Shown here: positions 861 to 55,903 of the stretch, piece by piece | Position numbering within the stretch: position 1 is the first letter of the stretch | How the letters are laid out: the number at the start of each line of letters is the position of its first letter | Sequence record: PQ850613.1 | Length of the DNA: 64,000 nucleotides | Reading direction: 5' to 3' (one strand) | Source of the DNA: Escherichia phage KarlSchell_Bas89 | Position numbers and translations under genes: made by a program | The notes under the pieces: model-generated | Seen by the model: only the letters and a program-made list of their open reading frames with translations | Database searches by the model: none | What the model was told of the DNA's origin: nothing

Positions 861-1352
861 ATGGATAATGTCGCATTGCCACCGATACAACTGAGCTTAA
901 GCCCAGAAGGGATGGAATTCATCATGAAGCATGAAGGTATGAGAACTCGTGCTTACCAAGATTCCGCAGGTATCTGGACGATATGTGTTGGGGCTACGCG
1001 CGATATGAATGGGTATCCAGTTAGACAGGGATTAACGTATTCTATAGAGGATTGTCTAGCTCTGCTAGATAGAGACACACAAGACTCTGTTCGTGCCACT
1101 CAGAAAAATATTAGGGTTCCTTTGTTAACCCACGAGTTTGATGCTCTCACCTCTTTCAACTTTAACGTTGGTGGTGGGGCCTTATCAACTTCTAAACTTA
1201 GGAAAGTTATTAACGGAGATGTGAAGGGTGATGTTTATTCTGAGTTCCTCCGTTGGGATAAAATTACAGTTAAAGGTAAGAAGATTAGCAGTCCGGGATT
1301 GAAGAATCGTAGAACTGCTGAAGCTGACCTTTACACTGAAGGTAAATACTAA
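861..1352 (+). CDS. lysozyme, GH24 (T4 lysozyme-like)
   Basis: E-x8-D-x5-T catalytic spacing in EGMRTRAYQDSAGIWTICVG, as in T4 lysozyme; strong RBS GGAGG. Confidence 0.75.
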   Translation: MDNVALPPIQLSLSPEGMEFIMKHEGMRTRAYQDSAGIWTICVGATRDMNGYPVRQGLTYSIEDCLALLDRDTQDSVRATQKNIRVPLLTHEFDALTSFNFNVGGGALSTSKLRKVINGDVKGDVYSEFLRWDKITVKGKKISSPGLKNRRTAEADLYTEGKY

Positions 1353-1363
1353 AAGGAGTTGTC

Positions 1364-2170
1364 ATGGCAGTAGAAACTAATGCTAACACAATTAATGACC
1401 TCAACCCCCTGTACCCTCGTGACAGGGACTATCTTTACGAAGGGGCGGCTCAGATTCGCCTCGTTAAACAAGTATTGCAGAACACTTTTCCAAATGTAAC
1501 AGAACCAGTTCAATTGGATTCAGATTCTCTCAATATTCTGGCTAGCAAAGTTACCTTCACTGGCGACTCTATGGATGTTGGTGGGTTGATGATCAAGAAT
1601 GCCACTCCGGGCACAGGTGACAGAGATGTTGTCACTAAAGGCCAGATGGAAGCTTTCATGCAGAACTGGATGGCTAACAAAGTATTCAGGATTGGTTCTT
1701 ACTATATCACTGAAGAAGATATTAACCCCGGTGATAGTTCTTCTCTTGGTTTTGGCTCTTGGGCTAAAGTGACTGGTGTTATCATGGGTTCTGGTGTAGT
1801 AAACCCTGATGGTTCTGTTCCTAATGCTCAGCGTGTTGAATTCCAAGCAGGTGGTACAGGAGGTCGTGTGTTCAATACTATCCGTGCTGATAACTTGCCA
1901 CTCACCACAATCAACGGCTCAAGCTTCCAAGTAAGTTCTTATACTCACCGACATAACATGCAATACTCTCGTGGTGATGCTAGCGGTCATAACAGCAATG
2001 ATAACTGGCTATCTCCAGATGGTGCAGAGTTTACGGATTACACCTCGGAAGATACTCACAGCCATACCATTACTGGTACAGCTTCATTTGGTCGTGATGA
2101 TATTTCTCGTCAACCAATCAACACTTTACCACCTTTCCGATCTGCACACATCTGGAGACGTATTAGCTAA
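1364..2170 (+). CDS. hypothetical virion/tail protein
   Basis: ORF with RBS, inside structural module; no recognisable motif. Confidence 0.45.
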   Translation: MAVETNANTINDLNPLYPRDRDYLYEGAAQIRLVKQVLQNTFPNVTEPVQLDSDSLNILASKVTFTGDSMDVGGLMIKNATPGTGDRDVVTKGQMEAFMQNWMANKVFRIGSYYITEEDINPGDSSSLGFGSWAKVTGVIMGSGVVNPDGSVPNAQRVEFQAGGTGGRVFNTIRADNLPLTTINGSSFQVSSYTHRHNMQYSRGDASGHNSNDNWLSPDGAEFTDYTSEDTHSHTITGTASFGRDDISRQPINTLPPFRSAHIWRRIS

Positions 2171-2179
2171 GGAGGCAAT

Positions 2180-54777: not shown

Positions 54778-55056
54778 TTACTTACCCTTGTTGGTAACTA
54801 CTGCATCAGGAATAAGGACTACAGGAATATCTGAAGCGAGCTTCATAACCTGATTGATGTTTAAATTGAGCACCACACAACCAGCACTAGGTTTGACTTC
54901 TGCTACGTGTGGAGTGAAGAGTTGCACAACCATATAATAACTTATACCAGTGCTTTTAACTTGGAATACATCACCAAGCTTCAGATCACTCAACTTAAGT
55001 TCTGGATCTTTCAGCTCAAGGTCAACCTTCATCGTTAATCTCCTGTTGCTTGGCAA
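54778..55056 (-). CDS. small early protein (paralog family)
   Basis: LKLSDLKLGDVFQVKSTG. Confidence 0.4.
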   Translation of the reverse strand: MPSNRRLTMKVDLELKDPELKLSDLKLGDVFQVKSTGISYYMVVQLFTPHVAEVKPSAGCVVLNLNINQVMKLASDIPVVLIPDAVVTNKGK

Positions 55057-55327
55057 TAGCTACTCGCAAGTCTTCATTAGCACGAGCAAGGCGTTTAACT
55101 TCATGATCGAGGCTGATAAGGCGCTTATTTCTGTCTTCAACCTGTTCAACCAGATCAAAAAGCTCAACTCTCACCTTTTCTGTATACATCTCCTCTACTT
55201 TAACCAGACTGTTATAGCGACGTTCCCAGCTGGCTGCTTTATTGCGCAGCATAATAAAACCTAACACAGCAATAGTTAACAGCAATACAAGTAAGAATTT
55301 ATATACTTCAATACTCATCTTATTCAC
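55022..55327 (-). CDS. membrane-anchored coiled-coil protein
   Basis: FLLVLLLTIAVLGFIML hydrophobic helix then charged helical region. Confidence 0.35.
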   Translation of the reverse strand: MNKMSIEVYKFLLVLLLTIAVLGFIMLRNKAASWERRYNSLVKVEEMYTEKVRVELFDLVEQVEDRNKRLISLDHEVKRLARANEDLRVAIAKQQEINDEG

Positions 55328-55516
55328 CTTTAAAGTAAGTTATTATAAGAAATATTATTTAGAATTATTATTTTCTAAACATAATTTCTATAATCTTTTT
55401 CAGAGGTCTATATACAGTCATTACCCCTAGTTCCAAATTGCTTCCACTTTTCAGTGACTATTTTCTAAGTGGCTGTTTTATAAGGGAATTTAGTTTGTCA
55501 ATTCTGGCACCTATGA

Positions 55517-55903
55517 TTATTCATGAGCATCATTATTGAACACTAAATCACCACAATACATCGGATTGGTATACCACTTTGGCACCCCCTCGCTCTTACT
55601 CTGAAAGTAGGTTCCACTGTACAGAGGAACATAATTCTTCTTGAGAGCACGTCTAGCAAGCTGTTCACTTTCCCTTATGGCTTTCTTAGTCATAGGATTA
55701 TCGTCACGAATCAGCTTTACGTAACGCTTAAAAGGTTTCTCCTTTCTAAGTAATACAGGAATCCACTCAAACTGGTTCTTTTGTCTTATCACCTGTTCAG
55801 CGGTCAGTTTTCGTTGTGACATTCTGTTTATTACGGTATCCGCAACTAGTGCTTTACATGCGGTTGGCTGGTTCCCTGCCTCATAATAAATAGTCAATGT
55901 CAA
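55517..55903 (-). CDS. SleB/CwlJ-like cell-wall hydrolase domain protein
   Basis: IYYEAGNQPTACKALVADTVINRM ... QKNQFEW resembles the Hydrolase_2 core. Confidence 0.5.
   Translation of the reverse strand: MTLTIYYEAGNQPTACKALVADTVINRMSQRKLTAEQVIRQKNQFEWIPVLLRKEKPFKRYVKLIRDDNPMTKKAIRESEQLARRALKKNYVPLYSGTYFQSKSEGVPKWYTNPMYCGDLVFNNDAHE

Follow-up and report, generated by a model that had tools for sequence, protein, structure and literature searches.

Phages of the SU10 and phiEco32 (Kuravirus-like) type are already known from published work to separate the wall-degrading enzymes of entry from those of exit, to carry a lysis cassette within the tail module, and to include a transglycosylase among their ejection proteins. 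The comparative study of phage YF01 places a holin and an endolysin in the middle of the morphogenesis module of this phage group (PMC9965538), and the cryo-electron microscopy study of SU10 names gp20 as an ejection protein with transglycosylase activity that degrades peptidoglycan during ejection (PMC9509320). With these systems we compare a stretch of 64,000 nucleotides from Escherichia phage KarlSchell_Bas89 (PQ850613.1; the whole stretch is hereafter called the window), in which a sequence-only reading had proposed three different types of peptidoglycan hydrolase. All three are confirmed by Pfam matches above the curated cut-offs, namely a GH24 lysozyme (Phage_lysozyme), an SLT-family lytic transglycosylase (SLT), and a SleB/CwlJ-like protein of the early region (Hydrolase_2).

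We consider it reasonably probable that the three wall enzymes have three separate jobs. The explanation earns this standing because its endolysin and SLT parts are solid, resting as they do on orthology to SU10 proteins that have been studied experimentally. For the SleB-like protein by itself, we tentatively propose the job of a minor, pre-made accessory lytic transglycosylase, which would reach the wall only after the holin has opened the membrane. As first written, the finding of three hydrolases matters little, since its features are published and a phage 95% identical to the window has already been sequenced. Several relatives of the window already annotate the SleB-like gene as a 'cell wall hydrolase'. 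The present analysis adds confirmation of the fold and active site of the SleB-like protein, an estimate of the selection on its gene, the terminator and CTG context of that gene, and the contrast with its signal-bearing homologues. The question that remains, a modest one, concerns the stand-alone SleB-type hydrolase that many phages of Gram-negative hosts carry besides a canonical endolysin. The lineage offers a clean genetic system for it, with well-studied phages, a single copy of the gene, a clear main endolysin, and an apparent built-in throttle on expression.

Two parts of the window (1-10500 and 54000-58500) were compared by megablast with a phage collection and matched about 98 phiEco32-like records. 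The best match was Escherichia phage EP335 (Gordonclarkvirinae, Nieuwekanaalvirus), with 95.4% DNA identity and the entire query covered, and the gene order of the window is the same as in EP335, phiEco32, and SU10. Judged by these comparisons, the window is from a phiEco32/SU10-type podophage of the Gordonclarkvirinae.

Enzymes of entry and release

The GH24 gene (861-1352, plus strand) encodes a T4/P22-type lysozyme of 163 amino acids, which matches positions 2-125 of the 125-position profile PF00959 (E = 4.5e-32; 111 bits, where the cut-off is 22.3) and the PHROG family phrog_7 'endolysin' (E = 7.7e-45). Lysozymes of the T4, P22, and R21 type use the catalytic triad Glu-x8-Asp/Cys-x5-Thr, and the triad read off the translation is intact (E25-x8-D34-x5-T40). 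The closest solved chains are the phage endolysins 8APP and 7M5I and the P22 lysozyme 2ANV, and the protein is 90% identical to SU10 gp15. Its N-terminus, MDNVALPPIQLSLSPEG, is non-hydrophobic, with neither a signal nor a signal-anchor-release (SAR) domain; in this it differs from the related R21 enzyme of phage 21 (3HDE), which has a SAR domain.

Thirty nucleotides separate the GH24 gene from the end of the gene for a predicted holin of 72 amino acids (612-830, plus strand), which matches phrog_11161 'holin' (E = 1.8e-46), has no Pfam match, and is 73% identical to its SU10 orthologue, gp14. The transmembrane scan gives this protein a single N-terminal segment (about residues 7-27), followed by a C-terminal part of about 43 residues with two cysteines; a single-pass protein of 72 amino acids is an unusual form for a holin. 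The same pair of genes occupies the same slot between fibre genes in phiEco32 (gp16/gp17), SU10 (gp14/gp15), and YF01 (gp12/gp13), and RefSeq annotates it as holin and endolysin in EP335, phiEco32, and SU10; nothing material differs in the window. Mass spectrometry of SU10 phage preparations identified 34 proteins, and gp14 and gp15 are both missing from that list. By all sequence comparisons, the GH24 lysozyme is the canonical soluble endolysin, encoded in a two-gene cassette between tail-fibre genes. Since it is soluble and has no signal, it would accumulate in the cytoplasm and need the holin, reaching the wall once the predicted holin permeabilises the inner membrane. The compact cassette, placed as it is between the long- and short-tail-fibre genes, is probably transcribed with the late structural operon. 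At its upstream edge, between the long-tail-fibre and holin genes, a short GC hairpin (518-545, plus strand; GCCCC-TTCG-GGGGC followed by TTT) may act as a weak terminator or an RNA-stability element.

The SLT gene (7266-8060, plus strand) encodes a lytic transglycosylase of 264 amino acids that matches PF01464 (E = 4.4e-25, 88 bits) and phrog_12507 (E = 1e-157). The domain lies at about residues 13-114, with the motifs E35-S36 and G50-L-M-Q53 read off the translation, and the C-terminal half (150 residues) has no family match. T7 gp16, a 'peptidoglycan transglycosylase', is among the closest solved relatives (E = 1e-9). The protein is 78.6% identical to its orthologue SU10 gp20, and phiEco32 gp22 is likewise an orthologue; both are encoded at the same position and have an SLT domain with E-S and GLMQ, and nothing sets the version in the window apart from those of EP335, phiEco32, and SU10. 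It is the first gene of a five-gene ejection block, the other four (8070-9116, 9129-10097, about 10112-11776, and 11842-16263, all on the plus strand) being collinear orthologues of SU10 gp21-gp24 with 69-82% identity, among which phrog_4287 'DNA ejection protein' is matched. SU10 gp20 was detected in virion preparations by mass spectrometry (39.6% coverage), and the cryo-electron microscopy study reports SU10 gp20-24 in virions and no longer in genome-release intermediates or emptied particles (PMC9509320). Because its orthologue behaves in this way, the SLT protein is assigned by orthology as an internal-virion ejection protein. It would be packaged in the head as the first of the five ejection proteins and, at infection, would be expelled through the tail nozzle before the DNA to cut through the peptidoglycan locally. 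Its functional analogue is the N-terminal domain of T7 gp16, which makes a hole of this kind; in T7, however, the transglycosylase is a domain of a 1300-residue core protein, whereas in the window it is a separate protein. A fourth wall hydrolase was also sought, and Pfam gave no such domain in the nozzle or in the gp19, gp21, gp22, gp23, and gp24 orthologues, the small open reading frames having been only partly scanned.

The GH24 and SLT genes both lie inside the plus-strand virion block, flanked by fibre, nozzle, needle, and ejection genes, as the sequence-only reading had placed them. Its suggestion that one of the two enzymes is virion-associated for entry and the other is the endolysin is also borne out, the former by the orthology of the SLT protein to SU10 gp20 and the latter by the position of the GH24 gene beside the predicted holin. 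The predicted holin itself, the spanins encoded elsewhere, and the fact that the arrangement is a conserved and published one among Kuravirus-like phages had escaped that reading.

The outer-membrane step of lysis would be handled by an overlapped pair of Rz/Rz1-type spanins, encoded on the opposite strand in the middle-gene region, 19 kb from the holin-endolysin cassette. The inner-membrane spanin (i-spanin; 20484-20834, minus strand, 116 amino acids) has an N-terminal transmembrane segment and matches phrog_1152 'Rz-like spanin' (E = 1.3e-35), and its EP335 counterpart, gp034, is annotated as an Rz-like spanin. A candidate outer-membrane spanin (o-spanin), with an 86-residue precursor beginning MKRLSQFFIMFALVMSTSSC, is encoded at 20339-20599 on the same strand in a different frame, overlapping the 3' end of the i-spanin gene and extending beyond it. 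This Rz1-like candidacy is suggested by topology, namely a signal sequence and a lipobox-like TSSC motif; the protein also matches phrog_2425 (E = 2.4e-24), an 86-residue family of unknown function, and its open reading frame has no annotation in EP335. A perfect copy of TAATGTATA, the consensus of the promoters recognised by the phage sigma factor phiEco32 gp36 (PMC8948821), was found by pattern search at 21691-21699 on the minus strand, upstream of a gene for 246 amino acids and the spanin pair. From its position, it may be the phage-sigma promoter of the spanin region.

Active site, start codon and conservation of the SleB-like protein

The sequence-only reading had placed a SleB/CwlJ-like hydrolase domain protein at 55517-55903 in the early region. 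The domain and the region both hold, while the gene lies on the minus strand and its real start is probably CTG 55927, giving a stand-alone catalytic domain at 55517-55927 with a length of 136 amino acids, as against 128 from the listed TTG 55903. The match of 55517-55903 to Hydrolase_2 is a weak one (E = 1.5e-7; 32.4 bits against a cut-off of 27). A profile built from 47 homologues, however, matches the SleB catalytic domains 4F55 (E = 1.1e-17) and 4FET (E = 1e-17), and the alignment runs through the YGESRGE motif. Profile searches therefore uphold the SleB-like assignment along with that of the SLT protein. The family is small, with 169 representatives at E <= 0.001 among 1.8 billion proteins. 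A glutamate that ends helix alpha-1 (E16 in the long form, E8 in the short form) and the arginine of an NR motif are invariant in all 47 homologues; the glutamate aligns with the first Glu of YGESRGE in 4F55, the catalytic residue of SleB. The protein has the SleB catalytic-domain fold and, as far as these alignments can tell, is a real Hydrolase_2 member with an intact active site.

Bacillus SleB (4F55, 4FET), a germination-specific lytic transglycosylase, shares with the protein of the window the N-terminal helix ending in the catalytic glutamate and the NR and QF motifs, although the two are only 16% identical. Bacillus SleB also has a signal peptide and an N-terminal peptidoglycan-binding domain, whereas the protein of the window has neither of these, nor a membrane segment, and so represents less than the full SleB architecture; moreover, its gene is phage-borne and belongs to the early region. 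Over the first 15 residues of the protein, MITTAQLLLTLTIYY, hydropathy averages about 1.3 (calculated by hand); none of them is basic, and nowhere in the protein does a 19-residue window reach 1.6, the threshold of the transmembrane scan. An N-terminal helix serving as a SAR-type export signal was considered and rejected on the grounds that the hydropathy is too low, the N-terminus is not basic, and the helix is modelled inside the fold. Bacillus SleB requires muramic-delta-lactam, and the walls of E. coli are without it, so that the substrate of the SleB-like protein must differ if the enzyme is active.

The listed start, TTG 55903, has no Shine-Dalgarno sequence. CTG 55927 lies 24 nucleotides (eight codons) upstream of it and is preceded, at a distance of 8 nucleotides, by the Shine-Dalgarno-like AGGGGGT (55936-55942, minus strand). 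In all 13 of the Gordonclarkvirinae examined, AGGAGGT or AGGGGGT is followed after 8 nucleotides by CTG ATA ACN ACN GCN CAG CTA. The six codons after the CTG vary solely at synonymous third positions; the eighth codon, directly before the TTG, varies among phages, being ATG in some and CTT in others. The two nearest outgroup contigs have GGAGGT and then TTG or ATG exactly at the position homologous to the CTG. The eight additional N-terminal residues are modelled as the first turns of helix alpha-1 with a predicted local distance difference test score of about 94, and the Bas86 record annotates the CTG as the start. The conservation of this arrangement indicates that the gene most likely starts at CTG 55927. 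This conserved start bears on annotation, as the deposited records give the gene five lengths (101, 110, 128, 129, and 136 amino acids), and one of them, the 101-residue product annotated in EP335 from an internal Met, is missing the catalytic glutamate.

By tblastn, the gene is present at >=80% identity, with its reading frame intact, in 98 records, which is the number of phiEco32-like records in the collection. Among eight sequences, the pairwise ratio of non-synonymous to synonymous substitution rates (dN/dS) was 0.03-0.18, with dS up to about 0.97. The SleB-like gene is thus real and under strong purifying selection.

More distant homologues with 31-36% identity occur in phages 7-11 and GAP52 and in other Salmonella, Cronobacter, and Proteus phages. 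Within the 53 of 90 kb of 7-11 that were searched, BLAST gave no match to the holin, GH24, SLT, or i-spanin genes of the window; the canonical endolysin of 7-11 is gp050, of the Peptidase_M15_4 family, and an Rz-like spanin is also present. From this distribution, the SleB-like gene appears as older than the other lysis genes of the window. The idea that it served the 7-11/GAP52 lineage as its sole or ancestral endolysin was rejected, since 7-11 encodes the M15-type gp050 and the Rz-like spanin as well. Like the gene of the window, 7-11 gp111, GAP52 gp023, and the counterparts in BME3 with PVP-SE1 and in several Salmonella phages encode a small, single-domain Hydrolase_2 protein far from the holin and alongside a canonical endolysin, and the neighbours of gp111 and gp023 have no matches to lysis families. 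The 7-11 and GAP52 genes have an annotated start giving 141 amino acids, whereas the Gordonclarkvirinae have a CTG at the ancestral start together with upstream hairpins.

The great majority of the more distant homologues, found in contigs of uncultured phages (IMG/VR loci L015-L089), carry an N-terminal signal peptide or membrane anchor. As they carry such signals and anchors, the SleB-type domain would work on the wall in the periplasm in these phages. In T4-like contigs, the signal-bearing gene adjoins the genes for a helicase loader and a single-stranded-DNA-binding protein. In one large group of homologues, the next gene encodes about 106 amino acids and three transmembrane segments, and in some cases a lipoprotein gene comes after that; these three-transmembrane proteins beside signal-anchored homologues are holin-like in topology but have no PHROG matches.

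Immediately before the SleB-like gene, the terminator scan found two hairpins resembling intrinsic terminators (56066-56049 and 55981-55962, minus strand), the second with a T6 tail and a stem of 8 bp, of which 7 are G-C pairs. Both sites also carry a terminator annotation in the record of phage 4E8. The papers on SU10 and phiEco32 assign the block that contains the SleB-like gene to the early genes. A pattern search for a phage-sigma promoter found no TAATGTATA motif near the SleB-like gene, a sigma-70 scan upstream of it did no better than on shuffled sequence, and the next predicted promoter is located downstream of it. Given the two hairpins and the probable, non-canonical CTG start, the protein is probably made at a low level. 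The SleB-like protein was undetected among the 34 SU10 proteins, while six early proteins were detected. The segment directly upstream of the gene (55930-56143) is also a hotspot of insertion and deletion when compared with positions 1590-2523 of the phiEco32 locus (L006). In phiEco32 and several relatives, it holds gp119, which encodes a YadA-like 'agglutinating adhesin/tail protein', as well as a small open reading frame; in the window, EP335, and 4E8, it holds only the two hairpins.

Possible roles of the SleB-like protein

The sequence-only reading had left the early-region enzyme unexplained. No experimental function for it was found in the literature searched, and the evidence presented here, namely fold, active site, selection, and absence of a signal, narrows the options without settling them. 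An intact active site combined with the lack of a route across the membrane makes a holin-dependent accessory enzyme the simplest model. In this model, a bare SleB-type domain with no export signal would be made in small amounts from the sigma-70 early region and stay in the cytoplasm; at lysis, it would pass through the holin lesion and add a second cleavage chemistry to that of the muramidase.

A number of points weigh against this proposal. The linkage expected of an endolysin-type gene is not seen, as the SleB-like gene neither adjoins the holin gene nor belongs to the late operon; in window coordinates, about 55 kb separate it from the holin gene and about 35 kb from the spanin genes. Thus, when the relation of each hydrolase to the lysis cassette is considered, the predicted holin adjoins GH24, the spanins stand apart at 20339-20834, and the SleB-like gene is linked to neither. 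A cytoplasmic enzyme that is harmless before the holin acts would not obviously need throttled expression. The sister phage 7-11 keeps its SleB-like gene despite having a Peptidase_M15_4 endolysin, and the signal-bearing T4-like versions lie beside replication genes; both facts suggest a conserved role that is more than a mere duplicate of that of the main endolysin. Since Bacillus SleB depends on a modification that E. coli walls lack, the proposal has to assume that the enzyme acts on ordinary peptidoglycan, and for no SleB-like phage protein does the literature searched report enzyme activity, the time of expression, or the effect of a knock-out. Two further points concern the other lysis components: the holin call is based solely on family name and predicted topology, and the TAATGTATA-type motif is not enriched as a class (22 matches, with 19 expected by chance).

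Some of the same observations would fit an action before lysis, such as early remodelling of the wall, disturbance of the host's own wall synthesis or recycling, or exclusion of superinfecting phages, with the enzyme made early and at a low dose because excess is harmful. We regard this as possible but doubtful. The position in the sigma-70 early block, the insulation by hairpins, and the probably weak CTG start all agree with it, as does the finding that, in the regions searched, the SleB-like protein is the only wall enzyme detectably common to the window, 7-11, and GAP52, the main endolysin being GH24 in the window and Peptidase_M15_4 in 7-11. The placement of signal-bearing homologues in a T4-like replication module, where export before lysis is possible, points the same way. 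So too do BME3 with PVP-SE1 and several Salmonella phages, which have the main endolysin near the holin and a SleB-domain protein elsewhere, with no function assigned (PMC12210895, PMC11180984). The protein of the window, however, has no signal or membrane segment (hydropathy of about 1.3 against the required 1.6) and hence no obvious way of reaching the wall until the holin opens the membrane, and no partner export gene was identified. Moreover, we know of no cytoplasmic substrate for a lytic transglycosylase. An unlikely extension is that the protein is a dose-limited early enzyme with a role of its own, rather than a spare endolysin, which two families of podophages with prolate heads have conserved and which has counterparts in the T4-like phages, in BME3 with PVP-SE1, and in several Salmonella phages. 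It might then be a lytic transglycosylase specialised for glycan strands stripped of their peptides by other enzymes, or it might get to the wall by an unrecognised route; if so, the CTG start and the hairpins would hold a dangerous activity at trace level. The literature searched held no published function for the proteins of 7-11 (gp111), GAP52, BME3, and the Salmonella phages, and no paper characterising a SleB-type phage enzyme of a Gram-negative host.

In all the Gordonclarkvirinae examined, CTG stands where the ancestral start was ATG or TTG; this, the disagreement of the deposited annotations over the length of the product, and the failure to detect the protein in SU10 could also be taken as signs of decay, that is, of a relic of an ancestral endolysin that became redundant once the holin-GH24 pair had been acquired, the lost ATG and the terminators then being marks of silencing. 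We consider this quite improbable, as the selection data argue against it: the dN/dS values are low, the frame is intact across the 98 records, the catalytic glutamate and the arginine are invariant, and conservation extends to the Shine-Dalgarno site and to the codons that follow the CTG, the first six varying only synonymously. Furthermore, 7-11 has a separate canonical endolysin, and the SleB-like protein need not have been the sole ancestral one. The most improbable of the readings has the roles swapped or shared, with GH24 acting at entry from the tail, or with the SleB-like protein present in small amounts in the virion for the same purpose. Some phages do carry tail lysozyme domains (e.g., T4 gp5), and the GH24 gene does lie between tail-fibre genes. 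It nevertheless encodes a stand-alone protein of 163 amino acids directly after a holin-family gene, the cryo-electron microscopy model of SU10 builds the tail from gp6, 11, 12, 13, 16, 17, and 18, and the SLT protein was found in SU10 virion preparations whereas gp15 and the SleB-like protein were not. Given these proteomic data, a virion role for the SleB-like protein is unlikely.

Genome layout and neighbouring genes

A late block on the plus strand (1-16263) is followed by the middle and early genes on the minus strand (16313 to about 61600), and the late block begins again after about 62500. From orthology to the cryo-electron microscopy assignments of SU10, the C-terminus of the long tail fibre is encoded at 86-517 and the short tail fibre at 1364-2170, both on the plus strand; the tail block continues on that strand with the nozzle (2180-5200) and the needle (5240-6220). 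Between the needle and SLT genes, 6222-7253 (plus strand) encodes a gp19 orthologue with DUF6453, named 'membrane protein', which is 92% identical to SU10 gp19; the latter is in neither the virion protein list nor the cryo-electron microscopy assignments of SU10.

Downstream of the SleB-like gene, 55022-55327 (minus strand) is named 'DNA helicase' by way of phrog_12154, but its product of 101 amino acids has an N-terminal transmembrane segment, a coiled coil, and a weak DUF7365 match, and the label looks like an annotation error that has spread between records. Two outgroup contigs likewise encode a protein of this architecture after the SleB-like gene, L090 with 33% identity and L092 with a resemblance in architecture. 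That this protein is the i-spanin of a hidden second lysis cassette was ruled out by the Rz-family pair at 20339-20834. The early-region lipoprotein gene at 52986-53267 (minus strand) was likewise rejected as its partner, being 1.7 kb away and belonging to a separate 'Phage lipoprotein' family, though it is the only lipoprotein of the early region. Its product has a clean LTGC lipobox, a Cys-rich mature part, and a match to PF24052 Phage_lipoprotein (E = 1.1e-34), and it could be a candidate for superinfection exclusion of the receptor-blocking type. A tRNA-Arg gene (anticodon TCT; 53287-53363, minus strand) is the sole Rfam/ARAGORN match in the window. Finally, about 1.6 kb at about 58330-59940 holds no minus-strand open reading frame of >=60 amino acids and is the counterpart of the spacer that, according to the SU10 paper, holds early sigma-70 promoters.

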